Positions 2,935-64,000 of a DNA stretch of 64,000 bases are shown one piece after another (the first letter of the stretch is position 1; every line of letters begins with the position of its first letter). The position numbers and the translations under genes were made by a program. Source of the stretch: Torpedo marmorata (Eukaryota); assembly GCA_977017645.1 (NCBI GenBank), contig OZ360222.1:230330001-230394000 (forward strand), in the 5' to 3' direction. The notes beneath the pieces are model-generated. The model was not told where the DNA came from. It worked only from the letters and a program-made list of their open reading frames with translations, and ran no database searches.

Positions 2935-3011
2935 GTATTGCTGTATGCATTGGAATGGCCAGCACTTTTGCTTATGCGAATTTAACAGTTAAACATCAAG
3001 TTTCTTTAAGA
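2935..3011 (+). CDS. RNFT2: RNFT2 internal coding exon (GIAVCIGMASTFAYANLTVKHQVSLR)
   Basis: AG at 2933-2934, GTAAGT at 3012; transmembrane-like peptide resembling RNFT2; phase compatible with next exon. Earlier exons are upstream of the window. Confidence 0.88.
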
Positions 3012-6419: not shown

Positions 6420-6520
6420 GAAAAAAGATCAGTATTTGCAACCCTGTGGATATTGGTGTTCCTCACAGGGAACACATTGTTTTTATATTACACTTTCAGT
6501 GCCCAGGAACTCTATAAGAG
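6420..6520 (+). CDS. RNFT2: RNFT2 coding exon (EKRSVFATLWILVFLTGNTLFLYYTFSAQELYKS)
   Basis: ttccaacAG acceptor, GTAAGA donor at 6521; 101 nt keeps frame; hydrophobic TM segment. Not in the ORF track. Confidence 0.87.
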
Positions 6521-9344: not shown

Positions 9345-10301
9345 TTTTTCATCAGAAATCTTCAACCAGTCCCACAGGTTAATTAAAAAACACAAAATGC
9401 TGGAGAAACTCAGCAGGTCAAACAGTGTATTAAAGGGCTCAAGCCCGAAACGTCAGTTATGTATTTCTACCTTTGCTACATAAAAGACACTGTTTGACCT
9501 GCTGAGTTTCTCCAGCATTTTGTGTTTTTTACTTCAACCACGGTGTCTACAGATTTTCGTGTTTTACCACAGGTTAACTATTTGACTTCTCAGCTCTGAG
9601 CACTTTGCTTCATTCTGAGCCCTCTTCAACTCCAGCTGTTGAAGTAATGTTTTCAGGCCTATAATATTCTCATTGGACAGACAGAATGCATCCTCATCCT
9701 CACACACAATATCTCTCTCAAAGCTAGTGTCAGGCAGTAGATCAAGTTCATCCATGCACAAAATGATTTTTTTCTTCGTTTCTACAAACTCAGCCCTTCT
9801 GCGTTCCTTTTCTTCATTAAGTGAAGCAATGTGCTGACGAAATGCATCCAGCTGTTCAACACTGGGGACAGCATCCTAATCAATTGTTGTACACAATATA
9901 TCACAAAACTCTTCATCTTCCTCCTTAAGGCACTTTAATTTTGTCATCCTCTCTTTCTTCTCCTTCAAAAGAACCTCCAAACGTGTCCGCAAATCTTTTT
10001 CGATCTGCAGCATTGTGTAATCTTCTTCTGGCAGACATGCATCCAAACCGAGTTCCTGACACACTGCATGGAGCTCTTTCTGGCACACAGCAATGCTCTT
10101 TTTCAGCCGCTGCCATAAATTTTCTTCCTCTGCAATCATCATATCCAAAAGGCCCTTAATATGCCTTTTAACAACTTCTGTTCTTTGCAGTCTTTGATCT
10201 TCTGGAATTCCAATCTCTTCCCAGATATTTCGAAGATGGGAAAGTGCTGCATTGAGACAGGTGACTGACTCGCTGGTGAGTGCATCGCTTTTCTGCACCA
10301 T
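9345..10301 (-). pseudogene. PRC1: Intronless PRC1 (protein regulator of cytokinesis 1) retrocopy, about codons 1-255, one in-frame stop (9876-9878) and a Penelope-derived insertion
   Basis: MVQKSDALTSESVTCLNAALSHLRNIWEEIGIPEDQRLQRTEVVKRHIKGLLDMMIAEEE...KDLRT...*DAVPSVEQLDAFRQH...LCMDELDLLPDTSFERDIVCEDEDAFCLSNENI...RSQIVNLW|DWLKISDEKR matches the recalled vertebrate PRC1 N-terminus; no introns. Confidence 0.93.
9383..9566. mobile_element. Short Penelope-derived insertion with 44-bp inverted arms, inside the PRC1 copy
   Basis: 11-bp TSD CCACAGGTTAA (9372-9382, 9567-9577); inverted arms 9385-9428 and 9487-9530; hammerhead remnant gggctcaagcccgaaacgtc shared with 50560-50582. Confidence 0.82.
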
Positions 10302-14672: not shown

Positions 14673-17073
14673 ATTTGCCAGATTTGGTACATTTAGATCA
14701 AGCTGGTTTTATTAAAAATAGATATTCAAAGGATAATATCGCTAGGTTAATTAGTTTAATTGGTTTGCATAAAAAGAAGGAAGATTTACCATTAGTTGTA
14801 ACATTAGATGCTGAAAAGGCTTTTGATAGACTAGAATGGAATTTTTTATTTAAGGTGTTAGAAAAATTTGGTTTTGGAAATATACCGGTATTTATAAATT
14901 GGATTAAAACTATATATAAAGAACCATCAGCTAAAGTAATTACAAATGGACAAATATCGTCAAAATTCTCTTTGACACGATCTACGAGACAGGGATCTCC
15001 CCTGTCACCAGCTTTATTTGTTTTGGCAATAGAACCTTTGGCTGAATTAGTTAGAAAAAATCCTAAAATAGTGGGTATCAAAGTTGGTATGGAAGAACAT
15101 AAAATTAGTTTGTTTGCAGATGATGTATTGATATATATGACAAAATCTATTATATCACTTCAACAATTATCTATTATATTAAGAGAATATGGTGAAATAT
15201 CTGGATATAAAATTAATTCAGATAAGAGTGAAATAATGGCTTTATCTCAAGGTGATTATACTAGATGTAAAGAAGTAACACAATTTAAATGGGCTAAAGA
15301 GGGAATTAAATATTTAGGGGTTAAAGTTGGTACAAAATTGGAAAATTTATATAAATTAAATTATTTACCATTATTTGTGAAAATAAAGAAGGATTTAGAG
15401 AATTGGAAAGATTTACCTATAACTTTAATGGGAAGGGTAAATTGTATTAAAATGAATATTTTTCCAAGAGTTCAGTATCTTTTTCAATCAATTCCTTTTG
15501 GAATTCCTCAAAAATTTTTTAAAGATTTAAATTTTATTATTAGGAAATTTTTGTGGAAAGGAAAGTTAGCAAGAGTAAGTATGGAAAAATTAACTTGGAA
15601 CTATGAGTTGGGTGGATTGCAACTTCCTAATTTCCAAAATTATTATAAAGCAGCCCAATTAAAATTTGTTAATGAATTTTTTGATTCAAACAAAACTTCT
15701 GCTTGGATTAAAATAGAATTAAATAATATAGGAGAAAATTTTAAAGAAGAGATTATTTATAAATGGGATTCTAAATTAATATCAGTTAAAAAGAAAAATT
15801 CACCAATCATTAAACATTTGTTAGAAATATGGGGTAAGTTGGATAAAGAGATAGGTGGAAGAGGATTAATTTCTTCAAATATGCCTTTATATCAAAATTG
15901 ACTTATTCCATTTACTATTAATAATCAGTTATTTAGAATTTGGTTTCAAAAAGGTATTAAGAAGATTAATGATTGTTTTGAAGCTGGAAGATTTATCACG
16001 TTTCAAAGAATGAAAGATAAATTTAATATATTAGATAATACATTTTTAGCTTATTATCAAGTTAAAGCTTTTTTAATCAAGAAATTAGGTCATGCTTTGA
16101 TTTTACCAAGACAAAATGAATTAGAATTATTAGTCACCAATGGAGAAGTTAATAAATTTATTTCTCAAATGTATAAATTGTTTCAGAAGAAAATGCCTAA
16201 AGTAGGAATTCATAAATCAAGATTAAATTGGGAAACAGATTTGAATGTAAGAATAGATGAAAATCATTGGAAAGAATTATGTAAATTAAGTATGACGAAG
16301 ATTATCAATGTTAGATATAGATTAGTACAATATAATTTTTTTCATCAATTATATTTAACACCTAAAAAATTAAAGAAATTTAATCCAACATTATCAGGTT
16401 TATGTTTTAGATGTAATAATGAGGAAGGTTCTTTTGTACATTCTACATGGTTTTGTCCAAAGATTCAAGATTTTTGGTTGAAAGTAAAAAAAAATTTAGA
16501 TAAAGTATTTAATATTACATTTCCAATGGATCCTATGTTATTTTTATTTGGAGATATTAGAAAATTTAGTATTAAAAAGAAATTAAATATGTTTCAAGTA
16601 GAATTTTTACGAATTGCTTTAGCAGTTTCGAAAAAATGCATTGCTATTACTTGGAAATCTGACTTAGATTTAGGATTAGAAAGATGGCATGCAGAACTTC
16701 GTTCGTGTATACCACTGGAAAAAATTACTTATAATCTACGTAATAAATATCATTTCTTTTTGAAAATTTGGAGCCCATATATGAGAGCTGTGGGTTTAAG
16801 GATTTGAAGATCTCTAGATATCGGATCTACTGGCAAACTTGACCTCCGTAATAGAATTAGTTTATAGATGATATTCCCCTTACTCTATTTTTTCCTTTCT
16901 TTTCTTTTTTCTATTTTTATTTTTACTGTTACTTTATATTATTAGATTAGTGGGGAGGGGGGGCTAGGGAGGGGAGGGAGATGGGGGGGTGAAAATATAT
17001 CACATGTATTTTGACAATTTTATATTTTACTCTATGTATTTTGTGATTTAAAAGTTTAAATAAAATAATAAAA
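14673..17073 (+). mobile_element. Young 5'-truncated L1 LINE (ORF2 RT and C-terminal Cys-rich domain, 3' UTR, polyA)
   Basis: DQAGF, LDAEKAFDRLEW, TRQGSPLSP, LFADD, IKYLGV, GGLQLP, CFRC..HSTWFC; single in-frame TGA at 15899; AATAAA at 17059; 16-bp TSD AAAAGACAAATATTCT (14657-14672, 17074-17089). Confidence 0.95.
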
Positions 17074-18410: not shown

Positions 18411-18564
18411 TTTGATATTTCTGAAGACAAGTGTGAAAAGCATGGATTTCTTTGACTTACTTTGGATTGCAGGAATCACAGACTTTGTCCTGAAATACAT
18501 CACAATTGGTTTCAAGTGTCTGGTCCTCATTCTGCCCAGAATTATCTTGGCTTTCAAGTCAAGG
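18411..18564 (+). CDS. RNFT2: RNFT2 coding exon (LIFLKTSVKSMDFFDLLWIAGITDFVLKYITIGFKCLVLILPRIILAFKSR)
   Basis: Polypyrimidine tract plus AG at 18409-18410, GTATGT donor; RNFT-family motif FFDLLW..GI.DFVLKYITI..KC. Confidence 0.93.
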
Positions 18565-30428: not shown

Positions 30429-30578
30429 GGATCTCTTTACCTTCTAATAGAGGAAGTGAGCCAATTATTGAGGTCCTTGATTCCTATCCAGCTATGGTAC
30501 AAGTGCATCATGGAAGGAGAATCAACCAATAGTTATATATTGGAAGGCACCCTCATTGTTCTGTATAGTCTTTGCAAG
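30429..30578 (+). CDS. RNFT2: RNFT2 coding exon (GSLYLLIEEVSQLLRSLIPIQLWYKCIMEGESTNSYILEGTLIVLYSLCK)
   Basis: ttttgcAG / GTGAAT; 150 nt; matches recalled human GKFYLVIEELSQLFRSLVPIQLWYKYIMG...VLYSLCK. Confidence 0.94.
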
Positions 30579-31003: not shown

Positions 31004-31069
31004 TTCCTGGATGTCTGTGGTCGAGTAGGTGGTTTGCGAAAGGCCTTGAAAACCTTGTGTAAATCACAG
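31004..31069 (+). CDS. RNFT2: RNFT2 coding exon (FLDVCGRVGGLRKALKTLCKSQ)
   Basis: ctgcAG / GTAATT; 66 nt; matches SFDICGRVGGVRKALKLLCTSQ. Confidence 0.93.
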
Positions 31070-31402: not shown

Positions 31403-33945
31403 TGTCAGTAAAAGGGCACAGGCAGAGCTCCATTAGTAGGGGGAAGGGCAGAGCTCTGATGGTCAGTGACAGGACACGGGCAGAGTTCTGATGGTCAGTG
31501 ATATGGCACAGGCAGAGTTCTGATGGTAAGGGCAAGGACACAGTCAGATGTTCGATGGTCATTGACAGGGCACACGCAGAGTTCTGATGGTCAGTGACAG
31601 GGCACACGCAGAGTTCTGATGGTCAGTGACAGGGCACACACAGAGTTCCGATGGTCAGTGACAGGGCACACGCAGAGTTCTGATGGTCAGTGACAGGGCA
31701 CACGCAGAGTTATGATGGTCAGTGACAGGGCACACGCAGAGTTCTGATGGTCACTGACAGGGCACATGCAGAGCTCTGATGGTCAGTGACAGGGCACACG
31801 CAGAGTTCTGATGGTCAGTGACAGGGCACACGCAGAGTTCTGATGGTCAGTGACAGGGCACACGCAGAGTTCTGATGGTCACAGGGCACACGCAGAGTTC
31901 CAATGGTCAGTGCAAGGGCACACGCAGAGTTCTGATGGTCAGTGACAGGGCACACGCAGAGTTCTGATGGTCAGTGACAGGGCACACGCAGAGTTCCGAT
32001 GGTCAGTGACAGGGCACACGCAGAGTTCTGATGGTCAGTGACAGGGCACACGCAGAGTTCTGATGGTCAGTGACAGGGCACACGCAGAGTTCCGATGGTC
32101 AGTGACAGGGCACACGCAGAGTTCTGATGGTCAGTGACAGGGCACACGCAGAGTTCTGATGGTCAGTGACAGGGCACACGCAGAGTTCCGATGGTCAGTG
32201 ACAGGGCACACGCAGAGTTCCGATGGTCAGGGCACAGGGCAGAGTTCTGATGGTCAGTGACAGGGCAGAGTTCTGATGGTCAGTGACAGGGCAGAGTTCT
32301 GATGGTCAGTGACAGGGCACACGCAGAGTTCTGATGGTCAGTGCAAGGGCACACACAGAGTTCCGATGGTCAGTGACAGGGCACACGCAGAGTTCTGATG
32401 GTCAGTGATATGGCACAGGCAGAGTTCTGATGGTAAGGGCAAGGACACAGTCAGATGTTCGATGGTCATTGACAGGGCACACGCAGAGTTCTGATGGTCA
32501 GTGACAGGGCACACGCAGAGTTCTGATGGTCAGTGACAGGGCACACACAGAGTTCTGATGGTCATTGACAGGGCACACGCAGAGTTCTGATGGTCAGTGA
32601 CAGGGCACACGCAGAGTTCTGATGGTCAGTGACAGGGCACAGGCAGAGTTCTGATGGTCATTGACAGGGCACACGCAGAGTTCTGATGGTCAGTGACAGG
32701 GCACACGCAGAGTTCTGATGGTCATTGACGGCACACGCAGAGTTCCGATGGTCATTGACAGGGCACACGCAGAGTTCTGATGGTCATTGACGGCACACGC
32801 AGAGTTCCGATGGTCAGTGACAGGACACACACAGAGTTCCGATGGTCAGTGACAGGACACAGGGCAGAGTTCTGATGGTCAGTGACAGGGCACACGCAGA
32901 GTTCTGATGGTCATTGACGGCACACGCAGAGTTCTGATGGTCATTGACAGGGCAGAGTTCTGATGGTCAGTGACAGGGCAGAGTTCCGATGGTCATTGAC
33001 AGGGCACACGCAGAGTTCTGATGGTCAGTGACAGGACACACGCAGAGTTCCGATGGTCAGTGACAGGACACACGCAGAGTTCTGATGGTCAGTGACAGGA
33101 CACACGCAGAGTTCTGATGGTCAGTGACAGGGCACACGCAGAGTTCCGATGGTCACTGACAGGGCACATGCAGAGCTCTGATGGTCAGTGACAGGGCACA
33201 CGCAGAGTTCTGATGGTCAGTGACAGGGCACACGCAGAGTTCCGATGGTCAGTGACAGGACACAGGGCAGAGTTCCGATGGTCAGTGACAGGACACACGC
33301 AGAGTTCTGATGGTCAGTGATATGGCACACGCAGAGTTCCGATGGTCAGTGACAGGACACGGGCAGAGGTCTGATGGTCAGTGACCGGACACAGTCAGAG
33401 TTCCGATGGTCAGTGACAGGACACAGTCAGAGTTCCGATGGTCAGTGACAGGACACAGTCAGAGGTCTGATGGTCAGTGACAGGGCACACGCAGAGTTCC
33501 GATGGTCAGTGACAGGACACAGGGCAGAGTTCCGATGGTCAGTGACAGGACACACGCAGAGTTCCGATGGTCAGTGATATGGCACACGCAGAGTTCCGAT
33601 GGTCAGTGACAGGACACGGGCAGAGGTCTGATGGTCAGTGACCGGACACTGTCAGAGTTCCGATGGTCAGTGACAGGACACAGTCAGAGTTCCGATGGTC
33701 AGTGACAGGACACAGTCAGAGGTCTGATGGTTAGTGACAGGACACGGGCAGAGGTCCGATGGTCAGTGACAGGGCACACGCAGAGTTCTGATGGTAAGGG
33801 CAAGGACACCGTCAGAGTTCCGATGGTCAGTGACAGGACACAGTCAGAGGTTCGATGGTCAGTGACAGGACACAGTCAGAGGTCTGATGGTTAGTGACTG
33901 GACACAGGCAGAGGTCCGATAGTCAGTGACAGGACACGGGCAAAG
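31403..33945. repeat. Intronic minisatellite, unit about 32 bp GCAGAGTTCTGATGGTCAGTGACAGGGCACAC, roughly 80 copies
   Basis: Direct tandem reading with variant units (26-bp deletions; GGACACAGTCAG variants toward the 3' end). Confidence 0.97.
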
Positions 33946-35011
33946 CGCCTGAAAATATTTGAACCAAGGCAGCATAAAATGTGTCCTCTCGCTTTGGTAT
34001 GAATTTTTTGCTCTCCCTTTGGAGCAAGTCGTTACAAGTATGAGAGTACAGTGGTTAGAGAACTGGAATGGAAACTTAAGGCGTCAGGAACTCAAATCTT
34101 ATTATGATGGCGAATTCCGTAAATCTGCTAATTTGTGACGTGGGCAAATTAACAATGGCAATGAACACTGAGAGATTGTTCAAAAAAGACAGCTAATACA
34201 CAAATATCTTTGAGGAAAGGAAAGCCAGGCTGGGCAGCTTTATCCGGCATGGACTCTTCGCACGGATGGACTTATCTGTGCTGCCACGATTCTGTAGGTC
34301 AGGATCTCTACCAGCACTGACCGCGGTTTCAGTCTCTCCCCGTGCGATTGACTTCTGATGCTCTCGGAAGCGGCCTAGAAAGCCACTCATGTAAGGCAAT
34401 TGCCTCAGAGCGACCACGGAGAGATGATAAATGGAATTGGCAAAATGCTCACGAGCAGGTCACAAGGACTCGGAGTATGGTAAAGACATAATCAAGAAGA
34501 AAATAAAATTTAAGTGGGACCAAGAAAAAGTATCACTCAGATTAGCTATCATTGCAAAAAACGTATGGTATTTTACAACATAATTGATGTCCAGGACTAA
34601 AAGCCGCATGAATTTTACAGCCACTGATGTAATCTTCAATTCCAGTGGAGGCTTACGTGATGGGTTTGAACGGATTCTATTCTAATCAGGTTACATAGCG
34701 CTGACTTCAAAATTATGGAAGGGTCTTTGGTATTGCAGCACAGTTAACATTATGTCAGCTCACTTCGTTTTTCTTTAGATTTATTTCTTATTTGGGCCAT
34801 TGGCTAACTTTGTATCCTCATCACCAGCCTCCCAAATACATTGTCAGAAGCTGCCAGAGGACAGAAACAAAGTATAAAAACACGAGAAGTCCAGAATCAA
34901 GAGAGCGTTATACATTAACGCCTTGGTGTTGGCACAATCTGAATCTTTTTTTTTTATTCGAAATAGCAATATTAAAGCTGTGCTCATTGCAACTGCCTTC
35001 TTTTCTGGTAG

Positions 35012-35113
35012 AGGTGTGGCGTGCGAGCTACCAGCCAGCAGTCCAGCGAAGCCGGGGATATCTGTCCGATCTGCCAGGCGGAATTTCGAGAACCTGTAGT
35101 GCTGATATGCCAG
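35012..35113 (+). CDS. RNFT2: RNFT2 coding exon, RING N-half (RCGVRATSQQSSEAGDICPICQAEFREPVVLICQ)
   Basis: ttttctggtAG / GTACGG; 102 nt; CxxC...C of a C3HC4 RING. Confidence 0.94.
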
Positions 35114-36032
35114 GTACGGGAGAGGAAAATAAGGTGTGTGTGTGTGTGTGTACCAATCCTTCCCCTGTCTGGCTTTGATCGAGTCCCCCTCAGCAAAACG
35201 CTGATCAAGGTGAGCGATCGATTTTTTTTAGAAATGGACAAGGTCGCTAAACAACAGCCCATTCAGTGTGAAAATGGTCAAATCACTGGTGCGTGGCATT
35301 AGGAACCGGAAGACATGTTCTTCAAATGTTCAGTCTGAAATTTTGGGATGGGTAGAACAAGCAAGAGCCTTTCCCGCTACAGTGCGCAAGGGAAAAGACT
35401 CAGCAGGCCAAGAGGCTCTCTGAAGGGAGAAACAAGGCAGGTTTCAGGTCGATGGCCCTTTAAAAAAAAAAAGTTGACATAGTTTTTCTCTCCGCAGACA
35501 CTGTCCTGTCTGTTGAGTGTTGCTAACGCCTGCCTTTATTTTGGTGATTATAGGTTTGGCCTTCACAGAAGTTATTTTTGGAAGATAGGTTCGGCGGAAA
35601 CCTAAATATGGTTTAAAAGCATGGCGTGGTACCGAGAGTAGATAAGCAAGGTAGTTCTGAGCTGCAGGTAGAGTGTGTACATGCGTAGCTTGCAACGTGT
35701 ATTCAAAGCAACGTGATTAAATCTGTACTTCGACGGTTTTAATTCTTACGCGAGAATGCACTGGAAAGACCAATCAAGAGCCTTCTTAAGATGTGAAGTT
35801 TTGGCAGAGAATAGAGAGCGTACCCGCAACCCTTCTCCCCCATTCCCCTTCAAAATAAACCCTTTTGCTGAAAAGAGAATTGATTTTTGCGTTGTGGTCG
35901 GGAGATCAACAGTGCGGACTTATTGTGGCATGGTTTGGGTGACCTTGCGTTCACTTACCTGCGGTTTTTATTGTGGAGATGGTGCTTCATTTTTATGTGC
36001 ATCTCTTCTCCTCCTGGCTGCTCAAATGCTAG

Positions 36033-36167
36033 CACGTCTTCTGCGACGAGTGCGCCTGCCTGTGGTTCGACCGAGAGAGGAGCTGTCCATTGTGCCGAGC
36101 CTTTGTTACCGAAACCGTGCGCTGTTGGAAGGATGGAACCACTTCGGCGCACTTCCAGGTGTATTGA
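36033..36167 (+). CDS. RNFT2: RNFT2 last coding exon, RING C-half (HVFCDECACLWFDRERSCPLCRAFVTETVRCWKDGTTSAHFQVY*)
   Basis: tgctAG acceptor; H-xx-CxxC...CPLC; C-terminus WKDG.TSAHFQVY as in RNFT2; TGA 36165-36167. Confidence 0.95.
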   Translation, partial: HVFCDECACLWFDRERSCPLCRAFVTETVRCWKDGTTSAHFQVY

Positions 36168-36961
36168 ATCCCGAGTAAGATCGATGGTCGGCGCTCGGTT
36201 CTCGCCGCAGAGAATTGTTAAACCTTCAGCAACCCCGGGGAACTGAATGTGACTGCGTAATAGCTGAGATCGAGCTTGTGAAGAAATTGCTCTGTCTTCA
36301 AGTAAATGTTTAAAAACTTCATGTTAGCTTTTTTCTGCATTTATGTTTAGAAAATAATTTTGAAAAAAAATGGAAATATTTATTAATGCATTTCAATGTC
36401 AATCTTTATCTTGCAGTTGGATAGGTGGTCATTTGATTGCTATTGTTTGTGGAATGTAATCATTAAATATTTGTTTTCACTCATCACGTTTAAAATATCT
36501 TGGGGCGTTTTGCTGATTTTGAAACATTTATTTAAAGGTTCAAATGCATTTTCAACCATTCTATGAAACAACAGTCTAAAAACATGTCCATCATTGTAAA
36601 GGAGTATTTACAGTAAGACAATAGAACAACTTTTGCAAAACTCTTGTACACTTACAGTTGCATGCAGTAGAATCAACGACTCTATTCAACTGGTATAAAA
36701 TTGTGGTAACAAATGTTGCAGTCCACATTTTAAAACATGCATTTTTTTTAAAAAATTGCTCCGATGTTTTGATAAAAGTAAATGCTGCAATATTTTTTTC
36801 GGTTCCATTCCTCCGCATTCCAACAGATTGTTCTGCCCAAGTTTGGACTGAGTTTCACTCCAGAGCAACGCCCTGGCGTTTATTGCGTCGATGAATGACA
36901 GACACTCCCCCTGTCACCTGCAAAGTAGAAGATATACATTTCGGTGTTGTTTACCATATTG

Positions 36962-36967
36962 AATAAA
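36962..36967 (+). terminator. Candidate RNFT2 polyadenylation signal
   Basis: AATAAA about 800 nt after the stop; a second at about 37235. Confidence 0.45.
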
Positions 36968-37958
36968 AGTATCCCTCCGCGATAGTTATGATTTTTTTTA
37001 AACTATGGTGTCCTACATAATAGCATACAACATTTTAAAACAAGAAAGTAACTTTGTATGATTTCAGCAACTTTTAGAAATACAATAGGAAGATGAAGTC
37101 ATTTTCAGAAGACAATAGTTCCCGTTGACGTCCTTCCCTTTCGTGGAAGGGAGTAATGTCGAATGATATCGAGTTGCAAAACAATGATGCTGAAAGGCTT
37201 AAAAGTTAAACTGAGCACAAAATGTTGCTCGCAAAATAAAACAAGTCAGTTAGTACCCCAGAAGCCAAATTTCACCCGCTCTCTCCGTCTCTCTTATCCT
37301 TGAGCGGTAGCTCGCGCAGAGTGAATCCCACGGGCACGCTTTACTGCTCAAAGTGGACCGAGCTGGTGTATGTTGGTGGAAGACGACCCAAGTCAGCACG
37401 ATTGTCTCGTTCGAACACACACACACACAAACACACGCGATGCAGCTGGGCTGACTGGCTATGGATCAAAAGAAAGGCTGGCTGGTTTTCACTCAGAAAT
37501 GATGGTGGCCAGGCCAACTGAATCATCCCTTCACCGTCCAGCTGAGATCAGCTCATTCAATGGAGCCCAACACTTCACTGAGTGTGACTCGGTGCCACGG
37601 GATCGGGTGAAGCAGGAGTTGGCAAAGAGGCTCGATTAATATAAAGCAACATCTTTGGATTTATCCACCTGTCTTTAGTCAAAATGATCAGACGGGGACT
37701 AGTGTCAAAGCTGTAGAGAGGGCATAAATATTTTCCATTTGAAAAAGATGAGCTTAATTCTAGTTTCAAACATCCCATTCGGAGGGGAAAGATTTTTATC
37801 TTTGTTAATATTGAAAATAGATTCAGCATCTCAAAACATCTATCTTATCGAGGAAGGTGAAATACTCTAGTTTGATTCTGCGTAACTATTGTATTGGGCG
37901 ATTGAAAAGCCGACGGCTCTCTTACCTGTTGAAGTCCAGATCCCAGGTGTTAAACTTC

Positions 37959-38216
37959 CTACAGGTGTTTATTTCTGATGAGTATGAGGAGTGCTGTGAC
38001 ATGGACGAGCGTGCAAATTGTATAAAGGTGCCTGTTGCTGACGTTTGTGTAGCTCCTATTCCTGTCGGCGGCTTTCCTCTGTGCCCTTTCTTGCAAATGG
38101 TCCCCTATAATCCTCAACCTTCTGGCGACCTCTTGTACTTCAGAGCACCGTTCGCCTGGCCGGCTTGAGGCGCACAAACACACCGTCCTGTCCACATCCT
38201 CTCCTTGCTGACACAT
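37959..38216 (-). CDS. HRK: BH3-only pro-apoptotic protein, HRK/DP5 ortholog candidate (85 aa)
   Basis: BH3 motif EVARRLRIIGDHLQ (LxxxGD), Cys-containing N-terminus, hydrophobic C-terminal tail LYTICTLVHVTALLILI plus basic RNKHL; A at -3 of ATG; lies between RNFT2 and FBXW8 in the same orientation as mammalian HRK. Confidence 0.82.
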   Translation of the reverse strand: MCQQGEDVDRTVCLCASSRPGERCSEVQEVARRLRIIGDHLQERAQRKAADRNRSYTNVSNRHLYTICTLVHVTALLILIRNKHL

Positions 38217-38271
38217 TGTTAACCAACTGCAACTACCGAAAACCTCAAAAGTCAGTGCGTCCGTTGTTAGG

Positions 38272-38333
38272 AGCTCTATTATTAATTAAAGCTGCCTTCA
38301 AGTGTCACATGGCGTTCCGAGGGATTTACATCA
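38272..38333 (-). promoter_or_regulatory. HRK proximal promoter candidate: ATF-type site, E-box, AT-rich TATA-like element
   Basis: Minus strand TGATGTAA (38333-38326), CATGTG (38311-38306), TTTAATTAATAATAG (about 38290-38276), 60-115 nt upstream of the ATG. Confidence 0.55.
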
Positions 38334-41144
38334 TCTCTACCCCCGTGTTCAGCTTGTGTTGGAAGGTAATTCTTAACCGTTTAGGTGCTGGGCCTATTAT
38401 TAGTTGTTCTTCGGCGTTTCCAGAAATTATATGAAAGGTATGATCTTTCTGCACTGAACCCACTTGTTTTTACTCTCGTTACTTACTCCTTGAGTTGTAT
38501 TCCAAGGATAATTTGTCGTTAAAGGTCAAGGATGACGAAAGTTTTGGAAAACTTTTTATAACGCATATTTGCTACTCCAAATTTTAAAATAGTGTCTAAT
38601 ATTTATGCCACATATATTTTTTAATAAACGTTTTCCTCATTTCTTGAGTCATGGCATTCAAAGTATAGGATGGAAATAATCTCTTCAAAAGGATGCTCGG
38701 GATGGGTGGCTAATTTTTTTTTCCCCTAGAGATGCGTTAGGAATTTATACCTGTAAATGTTTCATATTCTCTATAGAACCCAGTTGTCAAAACTAACTAA
38801 ACGTGAAATCAAACAACGAAAGTTCTCTCACAGTTCCAATGAACATTTATCAAAGTTACTTTATGTATTTCAATTCATCGTATTTCAGTTCAATTGGCAA
38901 TCATTGCAGAGTGGATACAAGACATTTTTGACATAGTTGGCGTTCATGAATAGCTTGTTTTTGAAAGGATATTTGAAAGGACTAATTGCTCTAATGAGTG
39001 GTGCACGATCGCTTCAGGTGTAGGCAGGCGGTTAACGGCAAGGAAACAATTACTCCCGCGTTTCAGGAGTATTCCTCATTTCCCTTCATTTTTTTCCATT
39101 TCTCCCAGTTAATTCCCCCAACTTTTGCGGTAGTGTGTACTTGTGCACAGCCTTAGCAGTTGTTATTGGCCGTACTATACCTCCTACAAAAAAAAAATAT
39201 ATCTCTCTCTCTCGGCGATCATGTATGTTATTGGGGAAGGGAGAGGAAATACCTTCCATTTCTTCAAAGCGACCAAGCAAGGAGTTTGTTCTGGTAGGCC
39301 AAAAAGTAACCTGATATGATTTCTGTACGTTTTAAGTTCTGATCTCACTGAAAATGCCCACAACTGAGACAAAAGTGGCCCCTCGTAAATTTCCAACTTC
39401 AACTAAATACAGTAAACCAGGCCATTAAAATATATGGAACTGCGTATCTTACGTTTACTAAGCGAGAACCTTTAGGGTTACAAGTTGTACTCCCTTGCCC
39501 TACACATAATGCCATAACAAGACACGATCACCAAAATATAGTCACAAGAGCTTTTTAAATTGAATGTTTATGTTATGTAATCTGATGTTTCTAGTAGCAT
39601 TTACTTCGACCATTCAAACATAAAACATAAGGCAGATAGACAGAAATAGTGTGTTCTCCAGCCTTCACGTCATGAGAATACACTTAATACGTTACATTGC
39701 ACACATTGTTGAAGTGCTTTCATGAACTCTTATGTAAGGGAAGCAACTCGTGCAAAGCAAGCCGCCACAAACAGCAAACTCGTCCTGTCGATTGAGGGAG
39801 GGTTGGCAGTCAAGGCATCAAAAAAAACATCAAACTCCTCTTTAATGATCCTCCTCATGATAGATGGGGTTACAACATGTGGGGAGTGCGTGAGTGTAGC
39901 AGGAGGGCTTGGTGAGCGAGGGTTGTTGGACATGGCGGGACCTACCTCTACCTTGTCAGCTTCCCTCCGTCATACACTGATTAGTGATTTTATGTCCTGT
40001 GTTTTGCGTGTCAGAGAACCAGACCACGACTTGATATCGCCAAGAAGTGTTACAGAGCTTTTATAATTTAAAAAAAACTTTAACATGCATATGTAATTTA
40101 CATTTTGAGTCGCAAAAGCCCCCAAACCGAAGCAATTGGGTTTCAATAATCTAATGACCTTCTGCAATGAAGGGGGGAGGAAATCCATGCCCCATCACCA
40201 ACATTATAAATAACTTTCTGTAACAACTTTGATTTAAAAAAATACACAACAGTGTCAAAGAGGTTGGAAAAAAGTTGTGAAATCGATGCCTTCCTGGTTT
40301 AAGGGAAAAATACGTGTATGCTAAATGTGTGCATGGTCCCGCAATGCTAGTGAAGACATTGCGTTTCCATTTATCCGTGACTCGGACAATATATTTAATG
40401 ATAACATCTTTTAATTTAAAGGAAACGTATTCATGTATACTCCCCCCAGAGGTGAAAAAGATATGTCATGGGTAACATTTACCTAATGATATTCAAACTT
40501 TTGGTTTTGGTTAAAGTAAGTTCGCGCTCCCTCGCTTGTACATCTGTTTCATCTGAGAACCCTATAACGCCCATTCGCATTTGTCCTTCTTTATCTGAAT
40601 AATACTAAACCATACCACCGAGCTGGGAAAGTGGAACCTCGGGAAATGTATCTGGCTTGTAGGTTCCTTTAGAATTGGACTAATGGGAAGTTTGCAAGTT
40701 GGTTGTGATTTATTTCTCAACGAGATAGAAAAGAATGATTTTAAATGGATAACAACCACATATGGTGTAAGTCTATCTATGCTTGTATACAATAAAAATA
40801 TAGATGTAACTTGAATGGAAATAATTGTGGAAAAACAGATCTTTTATCATGTGTTCTGAAATGAAGACCAACAGCACCATCCGTGAATAAATCTCAGAAT
40901 CGTCATCGGAACTAAATGCGGCAACCAATTTATCGCATGTCGATAGAAACAGTCGATGCGTTTGGAAGTTAACATGTTTATGAAAACCCATTCGAGCTTG
41001 TCATATTGACAATTAACTTAGTTGGTTACATGCAAGAGAAATGCTAATTTAATTTAAAATTAAAAATGTTAATGTTATATCAGCGGACTAATTCCCGCAT
41101 TTGGATTGTATTAACTTGGATTAACCCATAAACACGCTGTAAAC

Positions 41145-43784: not shown

Positions 43785-46580
43785 TAGACAATAGGTGCAG
43801 GAGTAGGCCATTCGGCCCTTCGAGCCAGCACCGCCATTCACTGTGATCATGGCTGATCATCCACTATCAGTATCCCGTTCCTGCCTTCTCCCCATATCCC
43901 TTGACTCCGCTATCTTTAAGAGCTTTATCTAACTCTTTCTTGAAAGTATCCAGAGAATTGGCCTCCACTGCCTTCTGAGGCAGAGCATTCCACAGATCCA
44001 CAACTCTCTGGGTGAAAATGTTTTTCCTCAACTCCGTTCTAAATGGCCTACCCCTTATTCTTAAACTGTGGCCTCTGGTTCTCGACTCCCCCAACATCAG
44101 GAAGATGTTTCCTGCCTCTAGTGTGTCCAATCCCTTAATAATCTTATATGTTTCAATCAGATCCCCTCTCATCCTTCTAAATTCCAGTGTTTACAAGCCC
44201 AATCACTCCAATCTTTCAACATATGACAGTCCCGCCATTCCGGGAATTAACCTCGTGAACCTACGTTGCACTCCCTCATATATAGCAAGAATGTCCTTCC
44301 TGAAACCTGGAGACCAAAACTGCACACAATACTCCAGGTGTGGTCTCACCAGGGCCCTGTACAACGGCAGAAGGACCTCTTTGCTCTTATACTCAACTCC
44401 CCTTGTTATGAAGGCCAACATGCCATTAGCTTTCTTCACTGCCTGCTGTACCTGCATGCTTACTTTCAGTAACTGATGAACAGACACCTAGATCTCGTTG
44501 TACTTCCCCTTATTCTAACTTGACACCATTCAGATAGTAATCTGCCTCCCTTTTCTTGCCACCAAAGTGGATAACCTCACATTTATCCACATTAAACCAC
44601 ATCTGCCATGCATCTGCCCACTCACCCAACCTGTCCAAGTCCCCCTGCATTCTCATAACAGCTTCCTCAGATTTCACACTGCCACCCAGCTTCGTGTCAT
44701 CTGCAAATTTGCTAATGTTACTTTTAATCCCTTCATCTAAATCATTAATGTATATTGTAAACAGCTGCGGTCCCAGCACCGATCCTTGCGGTACCCCACT
44801 AGTCTCTGCCTGCCACTCTGAAAGGGACCCGTTAATCCCTACTCTTTGTTTCCTGTCTGCCAACCAATTTCCTATCCATGTCAGTACCCTACCCCCAATA
44901 CCATGTGCTCTAATTTTGCCCACTAATCTCCTATGTGGGACCTTATCAAAGGGTTTCTGAAAGTTCAGGTACACTACATTAACTGGCTCTCCCTTGCCCA
45001 TTTTCATAGTTACATCCTCAAAAATGTCCAGAAGATTAGTCAAGCATGATTTCCCCTTTGTAAATCCATGCTGACTCGGACCAATCCTGTTACTGCTATC
45101 CAAATGCGCCGCTATTTCATCTTTTATAATTAACTCCAGCATCTTCCCCACCACTGATGTCAGGCTAACTGGTCTATAATTCCCTGTTTTCTCTCTCCGT
45201 CCTTTTAAAAAAGTGGGATAACATTAGCTACCCTCCAATCCGCAGGAACTGATCCTGAATCTATAGAACATTGGAAAATGATTACCAATGCGTCCACTAT
45301 TTCTAGAGCCACCTCCTTAAGTACCCTGGGATGCAGACCATCAGGCCCTGGGGATTTATCAACATTCAGTCCCATCAGTCTACCCAACACCATTTTCTGC
45401 CTAATGTGAATTTCCTTCAGTTCCTCCGTTACCCTAGGTCCTCTGTCCACTATTACATCTGGGAGGTTGTTTGTGTCTTCCCTAGTGAAGACAGATCCAA
45501 AGTACCTGTTCAACTCTTCTGCCATTTCCTTATTCCCCATAATAATTTCACCCGTTTCTGTCTTCAAGGGCCCAACTTTGATCTTAACTATATTTTTCCT
45601 CTTCACATACCTAAAGCTTTTACTATCCTCCTTTATATTCTTGGCTAGCCTACCTTCGTACCTCATCTTTTCTCCCCGTATTGCCTTTTTAGTTATCTTC
45701 TGTTGCTCTTTAAAAGTTTCCCAATCCTCTGGCTTCCTGCTCATCTTTGCTGTGTTATACTTCCTCTCTTTTATTTTTATACTGTCCTTGACTTCCCTTG
45801 TCAGCCACGGTCACCCCTTACTCCCCTTAGAATCTTTCGTCCTCTTTGGAATGAACTAATCCTGCACCTTCTGTGTTATTCCCAGAAATACCTGGCATTG
45901 TTGTTTCACTGTCATCCCTGCTAGGGTATCTTTCCAGTCAACCTTGGCCAGCTCCTCCCTCATGGCTCCATAGTCCCCTTTGTTCAACTGTAATATTGAC
46001 ACTTCTGATTTTCCCTTCTCCCTCTCAAATTGTAGATTAAAATTTATCATATTATGGTCACTACCTCCTAATGGCTCCTTTACTTTGAGTTCCCTTATCA
46101 AATCCGGTTGATTACACAACACTAAATCCAGAATTGCCTTCCCCCTTGTAGGCTCTGGTAAAAGCTGCTCTAAGAATCCATCTCGGAGGCACTCCACAAA
46201 CTCCCTTTCTTGGGGTTCAGTACCAACCTGATTTTCCCAGTCTACCTGCATGTTGAAATCCCCCATAACAACCGTAGCATTACCTTTGCGACATGCCAAT
46301 TTTAACTCTTGATTCAACTTGCACCCTATATCCAGGCTACTGTTTGGGGGCATGTAGATAACTCCCATTAGGGTCTTTTTGCTCTTACAATTTCTCAGTT
46401 CTACCCATACTGACTCTACATCTCCTGATTCTATGTCACCCCTCGCAAGGGACTAAATTTCATTCCTCACCAACAGAGCCACCCCACCCCCTCTGCCCAC
46501 CTGTCTGTCCTTTCGATAGGACGTATACCCTTGAATATTCATTTCCCAGCCCTGGTCCTCTTGCAGCCATGTCTCTGTTT
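43785..46580 (-). mobile_element. CR1 LINE, 5'-truncated, endonuclease remnant plus RT, several frameshifts
   Basis: GVIYMPPNS, VMGDFN, SDHN (APE); KSPGPDGLHPRVLKE, SQHGF.KGKSCLTNL, SGVPQGSVLGP, FADDTK; 3' tail with agacaatag. Confidence 0.95.
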
Positions 46581-49051: not shown

Positions 49052-50115
49052 TACAGTGCCCTTCATAATATTTGGGACAAAGACACATTTTTCCTTTATT
49101 TGCCCTTGTGCTCCACAGTTTTAAATTTGTAATCAAACAATTCACATGTGATTAAAGTGCACCTTCCAGATTTTATTGAGTTATTTGTATACATTTTGGT
49201 TTGACCATGTAGAAATTACAGCACTTTTTATACATAGTTCCCCCATTTCAGGGCACCATAATGTTTGGTACATTTGGTTTCACGAGTTTGTGATTACTCA
49301 GGTATGTTTAATCGCTTCATTGGTGCAGGTATAAGAGAGCTAGGCTTGCTTCTAAGCTTTTGATCACCTTTGGAGTCTGTAATTGCCATTTTCAACATGA
49401 GGTCCAGAGTTGTGCCAATGAAAGTCAAAGAAGCCACTATGAGGCTGAAAAACAGAATAAAACAGTAAGAGACATAACCCAAACCTTAGGATTACTAAAA
49501 TCAACTGTTTGGAACATCATTAACAAAAAAGAGCGTACTGGTGAGCTCAGTAATCGCAAAGGGACTGGTAGGCTAAGGAAGACCTCCACTGCTGATGACA
49601 GAATAATTCTCATCATAATGAAGAAAAATCCCCAAACGCCTGTCCGACAGATCAGAAACACTCTTCAGGAGGCAGGTGTGGATGTGTCAATGACTACTGT
49701 CCACAGATTTTATAAACAGAAATACAGAGGCTACACTGCAAGATGCAAACCACTAGTTAGCCACAGAAACAGGATGGCCAGATTAGTTTACCAAGAAGTA
49801 CAGTATTTAAAAGAGTCTGTAGAATTCTGTAAAAAGGTCTTGTGGGCAGATGAGACCAAGATTAACCTGTATCAGAGTGATGGCAAGAGCAAAGTGTGGA
49901 GGCCTAAAGGAACTGCCCAAGATCCAAAGCATACCACCTTATCTGTGAAACATGGTGGTGGGGTTGTCATAGTCTGGGTATGTATGTCTACCACAGGTAC
50001 TGGTGCACTTATCTTCATTGATGATGTAGTGTAACTGCTGATGGCAGTAGCAAAATGAATTCTGAGGTGTATAGTAATATCTTATCCGCTCAAGTTCGAG
50101 GAAATGCCTCCAAAC

Positions 50116-55309: not shown

Positions 55310-56614
55310 CACCGCCCAGTAGCACTAACTTCTACTGTGATGAAATGCTTTGAGAGGCTGGTCATGGCCAGAATTAACACATACCTAAGCAAAGATCTGG
55401 ACCCACTGCAATTCGCCAATCACCACAATCGCTCTACAGCAGATGCAATATCGCTGGCTCTCCACTCAGCTCTGGATCACCTCGAAAACAGCAATTCATA
55501 CATACAGTTGCTCTTCATCGACTACAGCTCGGCCTTCAATACCATTATTCCCTCAGTGCTGGTCAAGAAACTACAAACTCTAGGCCTATGTACTCCCCTC
55601 TGCAACTGGATCCTTGACTTTCTCCTTGGAAGACCACAGTCAGTACAAATTGGAAACAACGTCTCCTGCTCACTGATTATCAACACAGGCACACCCCAAG
55701 GATGCGTGCTTAGTCCACTGCTCTACTCGTTATACACTCATGACTGTGTGGCCAGGCACAATTCCAATGCCATATACAAGTTTGCCGATGACACCACAGT
55801 TGTCGGCAGAATCACAAACGGCAATGAGGAAGCGTACAGGAGGGAGATAGATCAGCTCGTTGAATGGTGTAATGACAACAACCTTGAGCTCAACGTCAGC
55901 AAAACCAAGGAGATGATTGTGGACTTCCGGAGGAAGTCAGGGGAACACAACCCAGTCCTGATCGAGGGCTCCCTAGTGGAGAGGGTCAAGAACTTCAAAT
56001 TCCTGGGTGTCAACATCTCCGAGGATCTGTCCTGGAGCATCCACGTTGATGCAATCACAAAGAAGGCTCGTCAGCGGCTATACTTTGTGAGGTGTTTGCG
56101 GAGATTCGGTATGTCACCAAAGACTCTTGTAAACTTCTACAGGTGTACCATGGAGAGCATTCTGGCTGGTTGCATCACTGCCTGGTATGGCGGCGCCAAC
56201 TCCCAGGACAAGAGTAAACTCCACAAGGTTGTTAACTCGGCCTGTGACATCACAGGCACCAAACCTCACTCCATCGAGGACATCTACATGAGGCGGTGTC
56301 TTAAAAAAAGCAGCCTCTATCCTCAAGGACCCCCACCACCCAGGCCATGCCCTCTTCACTCTGCTTCCATCGGGGAAAAGGTACAGGAGCCTAAAGACGA
56401 GCACTCAACGGCACAAGGACAGCTTCTTCCCCGCTGCCATCAGATTCCTGAATAATCAATGAACCAAAGACACTACCTTACTTTTCGTGCACTATTGTTT
56501 ATAATTTTGTATAGTAATGTCGTTAGATGGTTAATATGAATGTTAATTGCACTATGATGCTGCCGCAAAACACCGAATTTCATGACTTGTTCATGACAAT
56601 AAATTCTGATTCTG
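55310..56614 (+). mobile_element. Rex1/Babar LINE, 5'-truncated RT, inserted into an antisense CR1 remnant (about 55170-55309 and 56615-57120)
   Basis: ORF 55337-56455: [51 protein letters not shown]; tail ttctgattctg; flanking repeat ATGTC. Confidence 0.93.
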
Positions 56615-58787: not shown

Positions 58788-59348
58788 ATGGGCGATAAGG
58801 ATCTGGAAGCATTTCGACAGCAGTGGAAGGTCGAGATCTCGGGGAACGATTGCACCAATAGGGGAAACGGCACGGGCGAGTGGTGCAACAAAAGGAGACG
58901 CCAAGGGGTCCCGGGGCCCGGCTACCATGGGGACAAGGGGGTCCCGAGATCCAGTTACCTTGGGGACAAGGGGAGCCCGGGGCCCGGTTGCCATGGAGAC
59001 GCGAGCCCAGGGCCCGGTTGTCATGGGGACAAGGGGATCCCAAGGCCCGGTCATCACGGGGACAAGGGGATCCCCGGGCCCGATCCCGAAGGGTCGGCGA
59101 GTCGCAGCCCTCCGCCGCCCGATTACATCTACCTGGCGGAGAGTCTGTTGAAGGGGCGGACCAGCCCGCTCAGGCACCGTATCCAGAGTGAAAGACGCCG
59201 CCGGAGCGGGCACGTCGCTAGATGCCATAAAGGGTCGGGCAAGCCGGCCGAAGGCTGCGGGAGTCCTCCAGGCCGAAGCGCACGGGCCCCGGGCGGCGGC
59301 GGCATCAGCAGCGAGGAGAGCCTGCTCGACCAGTTGATCAGCGACCTG
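58788..59348 (+). CDS. FBXW8: FBXW8 coding exon 1 (187 codons); remaining exons lie beyond the window
   Basis: MGDKDLEAFRQQWKVEI resembles human MDDYSLDEFRRRWQEEL; ends ESLLDQLISDL (human EQLVDQLIRDL) then GTAATC donor; syntenic with HRK and RNFT2. Confidence 0.87.
58905..59085 (+). repeat. Coding minisatellite (about 33 bp, 11 aa PGPG.HGDKG.) inside FBXW8 exon 1
   Basis: PGPGYHGDKGV-PRSSYLGDKGS-PGPGCHGDAS-PGPGCHGDKGI-PRPGHHGDKGI-PGP. Confidence 0.85.
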
Positions 59349-62464: not shown

Positions 62465-64000
62465 TAGACAATAGACAATAGACAATAGGAGCTGGAGTAG
62501 GCCCTTCGGCCCGTCGAGCCAGCACCGCCATTTTACAGATCATGGCTGATCTCTACTATCAGTACCCCTTACCAGCCTTATCCCCATAACCCTTAAATCC
62601 TCTGCCCATTAGAGTCTTATCTAACTCTCTTTTGAACATAATCAGCGAATCTGCCTCTACCACCCTCTGTGGCAGAGCATTCCACAGATTCACACTTCTC
62701 TGGCTAAAGAAATTTTTTCTCATCTCCGTCCTAAAGGGCCTTCCCTGAATTCTTAAACTATGCCCTCTAGTCCTCGTCTCTCCCAACATTGGGAACAAGT
62801 AATCTGACTTCACCCTGTCTATCCCCTTGATAATTTTGTAAACCTCAATCATATCCCCCCTCATCCTCCTAAACTCCATCGAATATAAGTCCAGTTTTTC
62901 TAACCTTTCAGCATATGTCAACCCTGCCATTCCTGGAACTAACCTTGTAAATCTGCGCTGCACACCCTCTATAGCTAGTATGTCCTTCCTCAAATTTGGA
63001 GACCAGAACTGGACGCAATACTCCAGGTGGGGTCTCACCAGGGCCCTGTACAACTGCAGAAGGGTGTCTCTGCTCCTATAGTCCAATCCCCTCTTTATGA
63101 AAGCCAACATGCCATTTGCCTTCTTCACAGCTTTCTGTACCTGCATGTTAGCCTTCAGTGACTGGTGAACAAGTACACCCAGATCCATTTGCACTTCCCC
63201 ACTCCCTAGCTTGTCACCATTTAGATAATACTCTGCTTTCCTATTACTGCCCCCAAAATGGATAACCTCACATTTGCTCACATTGAACTTCATTTTCCAT
63301 TCTTCAGCCCACCCCCCCAACCTGTCCAAGTCCCTCTGCATTTTCCTGACATCCTCTTCACACTTTACACCGCCACCCAGTTTAGTGTCATCTGCAAATT
63401 TACTCAAGTTATTAATAATCCCATCATCCAAATCATTTACATAAATGACAAACAACTGAGGACCCAACACCGATCCCTGCGGCACTCCACTCGTCACATC
63501 CTGCCATCCTGAAAAAGACCCGCTTACCCCAACCCTTTGTTTCCTATTTCTTAACCAATTTCCTATCCACGTCAGCACCTTACCATCAATACCATGCTCC
63601 CTGATCTTGCCCACTAGTCTCCCGTGCGGTACCTTATCAAAGGCCTTCTGGAAGTCCAAATACACCACATCCACTGGCTCTCCCAAGTCCACCCTCTTTG
63701 TCACATCTTCAAAAAATTCCAGAAGGTTAGTCAAGCATGACTTACCCTTAAGGAATCCATGCTGACTAGCCCTTATACTATTATTTCTTCCTAAGTGTTC
63801 TGCTATTACTCCTTTTATGATGGATTCCAATATCTTCCCCACCACTGACGTCAGGCTGACTGGTCTATAATTACCCGTTTTTTCCCTCCCTCCCTTCTTA
63901 AAAAGCGGCACCACATCAGCCACTCTCCAATCCACAGGTACCTCCCCCGAATCTATGGAGCTTTGGAAAATGTCGACCAGTGCCTCCACAATTTCCAGAG
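62465..64000 (-). mobile_element. Young CR1 LINE, uninterrupted RT ORF running off the window edge
   Basis: ORF 62559-63989 (476 aa) without stops: NYRPVSLTSVVGK, QHGF, SGVPQGSVLGP, FADDTK; 3' (TCTATTG)n tail. Confidence 0.95.

Follow-up and report, generated by a model that had tools for sequence, protein, structure and literature searches.

A probable ortholog of the BH3-only gene HRK/DP5 next to RNFT2 in a batoid genome

We describe an uninterrupted 85-codon reading frame in a 64-kb stretch of batoid DNA (the whole stretch is hereafter called the window) that appears to be a real, intact ortholog of HRK/DP5, a reading to which we assign a probability of about 0.9. By analogy with mammals, its product would be a BH3-only sensitizer that is inducible by stress. 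In the accessible part of PMC6124574 (2018), HRK is reported as undetected in zebrafish, in Xenopus and in axolotl and is called restricted to higher vertebrates; the accessible part of PMC8998228 states that Hrk seems to be lacking in fish and omits the gene from what it gives for sharks and rays. The zebrafish negative that an earlier, sequence-only reading of this DNA had mentioned is in print second-hand in these two sources, the former of which cites a zebrafish survey. The accessible parts of PMC7022251, PMC3121775, PMC3256215, PMC11503884 and bioRxiv 2026.08.22.746193 contain nothing on fish HRK, and none of the openly readable papers listed among the matches reports HRK from a cartilaginous or bony fish in its main text (database labels fall outside this count). 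As we read them, the ray ortholog, the Xenopus proteins and a turbot candidate contradict the printed view of an HRK limited to higher vertebrates. The gene itself is a known one with an expected role; what is gained is a correction of the family history together with several leads, and no new mechanism.

Identity of the reading frame

The coding sequence (37959-38216, minus strand) translates from ATG to TAG over 85 codons, and the plus strand of the same interval is interrupted by a stop. Its translation bears out the BH3 core LRIIGDHL previously noticed in an 85-residue frame, which falls at residues 34-41. Pfam assigns residues 11-76 to the Harakiri family (PF15196) with a score of 31.3 bits (E 3e-07), which exceeds the family's curated threshold, 27.9 bits. 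Within a limit of E 10, the sole additional family has an E value of 0.15, and none of BCL2L15/BFK, PXT1, NOXA, BIK, BIM or BMF has a Pfam model of its own listed within that limit. A further view came from a profile of six of the seven named frog proteins described below (P0010 was omitted for its aberrant ends), on which the frame scored 50.8 bits (E 5.8e-14), with the runner-up among the 2081 frames of the window at E 1.3. No shuffle of the protein reached 50.8 bits (0 of 998 scored; maximum, 12.0). The profile used to recruit the frog proteins included the window protein itself; the frog-like relatives tested, four of four, clear the Harakiri cut-off on their own. When profiles seeded from the 85-residue protein were run against 177635 PDB sequences, human HRK peptides were the top three. 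The sequence by itself drew no PDB match, HRK peptides included, and a homolog search from it alone gave one candidate, which was not scored. Rfam returned no match. HRK identity is thus supported by PF15196, by the frog profile and by the neighboring RNFT2 gene.

Two other explanations bear on these scores. A loose BH3 pattern matches at six places in the frames of the window, as it might if ours were a chance frame with a BH3-like motif. However, HRK profiles score the frame at 37959-38216 alone; given its E value on the frog profile and shuffles that never approach its score, we regard a chance origin as excluded. Alternatively, the frame could be a different or convergent BH3-only gene, whether derived from BCL2L15/BFK or akin to PXT1, NOXA or BIK, since BH3 is a short motif. 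In keeping with this, human BCL2L15 weakly matches the profile (E 0.0047 and 0.0018) over its BH3 and the cysteine stretch before it, and an Atlas search with the protein gave only matches below 0.9, scattered over unnamed clusters, PXT1, BIM, BIK, NOXA and BMF, none of them named HRK, with structure matches at TM below 0.5. Yet BCL2L15 is larger (a 183-residue chain in its PDB entry) and the match spans only ~40 residues, whereas similarity to HRK extends over the N-terminus, BH3 and tail, and Harakiri is the sole Pfam BH3 family matched. RNFT2 adjacency, the promoter site and the predicted intron position, described below, are moreover independent of the protein motif. We consider a non-HRK origin highly improbable and retain the assignment to HRK.

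Protein anatomy and partner preference

The N-terminal arm (residues 1-24; 38145-38216, minus strand) is predicted to be unstructured from low pLDDT in a structure model whose confidence is low to moderate (pLDDT 65, pTM 0.34). The model has no helix before residue 26 and places helices at residues 26-55, which include BH3, and 61-84, the tail. Across 10 aligned nonmammalian proteins, Cys2, Cys15 and Cys24 are invariant and Cys13 is nearly so; these N-terminal cysteines weakly resemble the stretch preceding the BH3 of human BCL2L15. The BH3 helix spans residues 28-42 (38091-38135, minus strand), helical in the model, with a register taken from PDB alignments, a script and the accessible Results of PMC12396273: Gln28, h1 Val30, Arg33, h2 Leu34, h3 Ile37, Gly38-Asp39, His40 and h4 Leu41. 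The human HRK equivalents are Gln31, Thr33, Arg36, Leu37, Leu40, Gly41-Asp42, Glu43 and Leu44 (PMC12396273, in part). As expected of a BH3, the ray helix has Leu at h2 preceded by Arg, a Gly-Asp pair, and hydrophobic residues at h3 and h4. No other BH motif was found in the 85-residue protein by Pfam, the hydropathy script or the structure model. The hydrophobic anchor that had been noticed at the C-terminus holds up as a transmembrane segment at residues 64-80 (37977-38027, minus strand; mean Kyte-Doolittle hydropathy, 2.27; model helix, 61-84), followed by a short basic tail with a net charge of +2, the arrangement of a tail anchor.

Human HRK (PF15196; PDB 2L58, 6XY4 and 9LI8) is built in the same way: it is short, its N-terminus is unstructured, and it has a single BH3 helix and a membrane helix at the C-terminus. 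The two proteins share the RNFT2 locus and, in the same BH3 register, Gln, Arg, h2 Leu, Gly-Asp and h4 Leu. The 85-residue ray protein differs in having Val for Thr33 at h1, Ile for Leu40 at h3, His for Glu43 and Gln for His45. Opposite Cys24 the human HRK peptide has a Ser, and the ray tail has no Trp, whereas the human tail has three (PMC3121775, in part).

It had been suggested that reading GDH in place of the mammalian GDE might shift partner preference. In favor of this, human Glu43 is a computed hot spot that forms a salt bridge with Arg100 of BCL-XL; against it, the BCL-XL R100A substitution left HRK affinity unchanged (PMC12396273, in part). In addition, the residue after Gly-Asp varies among relatives, being His in the ray, Gln in the turbot protein, one of six frogs and one unnamed relative, and Glu in the other five frogs. 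Because this position varies and R100A had no effect, the GDH difference probably matters little, and h1 is the more promising lead. At h1 of human HRK, all three substitutions tested for Thr33 (Ile, Met and Leu) raised potency on BCL-2, and replacement of Arg36 lowered potency on BCL-XL as well as on BCL-2 (PMC12396273, in part). The polar Thr, a human feature linked to BCL-XL selectivity, is missing in the ray (Val30); it is present in all six frogs, and it does not define the family, since Leu takes its place in turbot and in one unnamed relative. By analogy with the human substitutions, Val at h1 is the likelier specificity change. [quoted passage not shown]

Relatives in frogs and turbot

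Two relatives came from a search of 1.84 billion representatives. A profile of three sequences then yielded 10 relatives from 115 candidates, comprising seven named frog proteins, one from turbot and two unnamed. None of the 10 is named HRK or comes from a named cartilaginous fish. Since no amniote HRK was returned either, the search was incomplete and its negatives are weak; named RNFT2 proteins of seven elasmobranch genera are present in that same collection. The closest named relatives are the frog proteins, from Xenopus tropicalis (XENTR_v10002585), X. laevis (XELAEV_18007878mg), Eleutherodactylus, Pyxicephalus, Leptobrachium and Hymenochirus. They are 83-84 residues long, have the cysteine pattern and tail in common with ray HRK, and show 34-39% global identity to it in the three compared. 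They are unlike it in their uniform Thr at h1. Ray and frog proteins align end to end, and over the span Met1-Leu85 a total of 13 columns are invariant. In their source records, these frog HRK proteins (P0003 and P0005-P0010) are labeled hypothetical, uncharacterized or transmembrane protein.

The turbot protein F2P81_014303 (P0011), labeled hypothetical, is a probable HRK ortholog, judged by its sequence. It is 93 residues long and shares its start, BH3 register and tail end with ray HRK. It was found at E 1.5e-3 in 5.8 billion sequences, and on the frog-only profile it scored 24.6 bits, while the best of 965 scored shuffles reached 7.0. Unlike ray HRK, it falls below the Pfam cut-off (11 bits, E 0.64) and has a Gly/Ala-rich linker. 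An Atlas search with it gave only matches below 0.9, none named HRK, and structure matches at TM below 0.5. If this gene were found to adjoin rnft2 or fbxw8, it would contradict the statement that HRK is absent in fish.

Genomic neighborhood

In human, the gene order is RNFT2-HRK-FBXW8, with HRK on the strand opposite to both neighbors, and the ray frame had been placed between the same two genes. The RNFT2 side of this placement is confirmed. The last seven coding exons of RNFT2 lie on the plus strand within 2935-36167 (2935-3011, 6420-6520, 18411-18564, 30429-30578, 31004-31069, 35012-35113 and 36033-36167) and join into one open 260-residue frame that ends at 36167, tail-to-tail with HRK. 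On the other side, ~20.6 kb upstream of HRK and divergent from it in orientation, an open reading frame with a donor (58788-59348, plus strand) is the probable first coding exon of FBXW8. We take it to resemble the mammalian FBXW8 N-terminus; searches with four different stretches returned no Pfam and no PDB match. RNFT2, HRK and FBXW8 are described at one locus in human (PMC6445783, in part) and in goat (PMC12686773, in part).

The RNFT2 frame also indicates the source of the DNA. We compared it with 21 of 120 listed proteins and found 93.8% identity to Mobula; four sharks gave 88-91%, and the 13 bony vertebrates in the comparison 64-72%. In a tree of 20 rows, from which the shorter isoforms of Amblyraja and Chiloscyllium were left out, the window sequence joins Mobula (97/95) within elasmobranchs (98/95); the omitted skate isoform, too short for the tree, agrees with the last exon at 95%. 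The impression of a cartilaginous-fish genome is borne out by this tree and can be narrowed to a batoid (a ray or skate), because RNFT2 groups with that of a devil ray.

The interval 34501-41000, which takes in both HRK and the 3' end of RNFT2, has CpG observed/expected ratios of 0.54-1.05 in all 13 windows of 500 nt, against a median of 0.34 for the window as a whole. Such CpG retention at 34.5-41 kb is what would be expected of a low-methylation regulatory domain.

A probable intron in the 3' untranslated region

In rat dp5, the entire open reading frame lies in exon 1 and an 18.9-kb intron interrupts the 3' untranslated region (PMC2685101). The ray gene probably has the same layout, judging from a consensus splice donor close behind the stop codon: the untranslated piece of exon 1 (33 nt) and the donor occupy 37920-37958 on the minus strand, with the first intron base at 37925. 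Donors of that kind number 10 on both strands of the 64 kb, and 0.005 would be expected within 60 nt. The earlier description of the gene as single-exon is therefore accurate for the coding sequence, which would lie wholly in exon 1 as in rat, and probably fails for the gene as a whole. By the usual rule of 50-55 nt for nonsense-mediated decay, the HRK transcript would escape that pathway because the predicted junction is only 33 nt past the stop.

Only 1.76 kb separates the donor from the RNFT2 stop (36167-37925), far less room than the rat intron takes, unless exon 2 overlaps RNFT2. Candidate exon 2 acceptors are found at 37710, 37458 and 35419. Minus-strand polyadenylation signals occur from 36884 downward, and signals on both strands are found in 36167-37925. 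With this spacing and these candidates, the HRK transcript would be either compact or overlapping with RNFT2, and the 3' ends of the two genes may overlap.

A promoter element shared with rat dp5

Upstream of the frame lies an ATF/CRE-like site, TGATGTAA (38326-38333, minus strand), identical to the c-Jun/ATF2 site that the rat dp5 promoter carries ~133 nt before the ATG (PMC2685101). The ray copy begins 117 nt upstream of the ATG on the coding strand, 16 nt closer than in rat, and 14 of 20 bases agree with the rat dp5 probe. It is followed by two tandem E-boxes, CATGTG and CACTTG (38299-38311, minus strand), and by an AT-rich, TATA-like run (38276-38290, minus strand) that was located by eye and with a script. 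This run begins 74 nt before the ATG, with no intervening ATG ahead of the start codon, and contains no match to a strict TATA pattern. An E-box and a TATA-like element also lie downstream of the 8-mer in rat dp5, and the ray order of ATF site, E-boxes and TATA-like run is that of the mammalian promoter alignment in the accessible legend to Fig. 3, a comparison of order that leaves the mammalian E-box letters aside (PMC2685101). The promoter GC box, described only for four mammals in that work, differs: neither GGGCGG nor CCGCCC is present within 300 nt upstream of ray HRK.

How far this match exceeds chance was gauged with the whole, unedited 20-base rat probe. An exact core together with 14 probe matches occurs in one of 640 200-nt tiles of the window, the HRK promoter tile itself, and in one of 5000 shuffles of the 200 nt upstream. 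Another DNA pattern is also unique in the window and arose in none of 100 shuffles, and it is not relied on because it was constructed after the match was seen. The 8-mer alone is not rare, with five copies in the 64-kb window and 3.5 expected. Another site, at 39883, agrees with the rat probe at 15 of 20 bases and lacks the core, being the best coreless match in the window. It lies within a 67-codon reading frame with a hydrophobic end (39730-39933, minus strand), 1.5 kb upstream of HRK, that has no Pfam match; this is probably chance.

A true HRK ortholog could still carry this site by coincidence, or be regulated differently in the ray, through another ATF or a CEBP factor or without neuronal stress induction. 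The chance frequency of the 8-mer would fit such a view, as would the missing GC box and the four probe bases 5' of the ray match that differ from rat. The same 8-mer also works in another stress gene, rat trib3 (PMC3256215, in part), so that it does not name its factor. Nevertheless, strand and order are right, the spacing is near that of rat, and among the five core sites the HRK-upstream copy has the best flank (14 of 20, versus 9-12 of 20 elsewhere); one of the 5000 shuffles reproduced the match. We judge coincidence unlikely; a stress-response promoter element is probably conserved between ray HRK and rat dp5.

Proposed mechanism and age of HRK

By extrapolation from rat, c-Jun/ATF2 activated by JNK, or else some related ATF factor, would bind the 8-mer and induce transcription, probably in neurons. 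Exon 1 would supply the whole reading frame and be spliced just past the stop to an exon of 3' untranslated sequence. The hydrophobic tail would anchor the protein in the mitochondrial outer membrane, where its BH3 helix would fill the groove of BCL-XL or BCL-2, with Asp39 paired to the BH1 arginine. Occupied BCL-XL and BCL-2 would in turn free BAX and BAK, leading to permeabilized mitochondria. Killing by human HRK requires L37, D42 and BAX/BAK, and its tail, required for localization to mitochondria, increases potency (PMC12820597, in part). The ray protein keeps the equivalents L34 and D39, as well as Arg33, the equivalent of Arg36.

The exact 85-residue protein is absent among ~15 billion sequences. 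Together with relatives that bear other names, this fits a gene that is not called as a protein in rays and partly supports the earlier view that annotation had missed it. The accompanying explanation that HRK is too divergent to annotate was overstated, because Pfam finds ray HRK above its cut-off. The same absence, and that of any relative from a named cartilaginous fish, could also point to a relic, a recently silenced pseudogene whose frame has yet to decay. We hold this to be very unlikely: the start and stop codons, BH3, the tail, the donor and the elements of the promoter are all intact, residues are conserved at both ends of the protein, and an apparent pseudogene in the same window, a copy of PRC1, shows an in-frame stop and truncation.

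We continue to treat the frame as an intact HRK ortholog. Because ray and tetrapod HRK share the protein, promoter site, probable intron position and RNFT2 neighbor, the gene would have been present in their last common jawed-vertebrate ancestor. This supports the earlier proposal of an origin at least that old, and HRK probably dates to the first jawed vertebrates. Any absence from zebrafish would then represent a loss or a search failure. The 8-bp stress element, apparently kept since the split of rays and mammals, would put the JNK-to-HRK circuit of neuronal death as far back as that ancestor. One joint reading, which we put forward tentatively and lean against at present, makes HRK an ancestral jawed-vertebrate module of protein plus c-Jun/ATF switch, kept but unannotated in rays, frogs and at least some teleosts. 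In it, an ancestral protein with a hydrophobic h1 antagonized BCL-XL and BCL-2 alike, and the BCL-XL selectivity of mammalian HRK came with the appearance of Thr at h1 in the tetrapod lineage. The N-terminal cysteines would serve an unrecognized role (lipidation, or control by metal or redox state), and their resemblance to BCL2L15 may reflect descent from a BFK-type BH3 exon.

Other features of the window

The PRC1 copy is intronless and lies in an RNFT2 intron at ~9540-10300 on the minus strand. It matches PRC1 in the PDB at E 6e-47, is truncated after ~240 codons, and looks like a processed pseudogene. An RNFT2 intron also holds a minisatellite at 31448-33937, with 79 copies of a 32-bp unit at 89% matches, and a 33-bp (11-codon) tandem repeat of 5.6 copies falls at 58902-59082, within the probable first exon of FBXW8. 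Many other frames, among them those at 901-1407, 15089-16807, 43867-46368, 55340-56455 and 62559-63341, read like fragments of LINE reverse transcriptase, which we presume them to be, and the frame at 49618-50034 is presumably a Tc1-like transposase.
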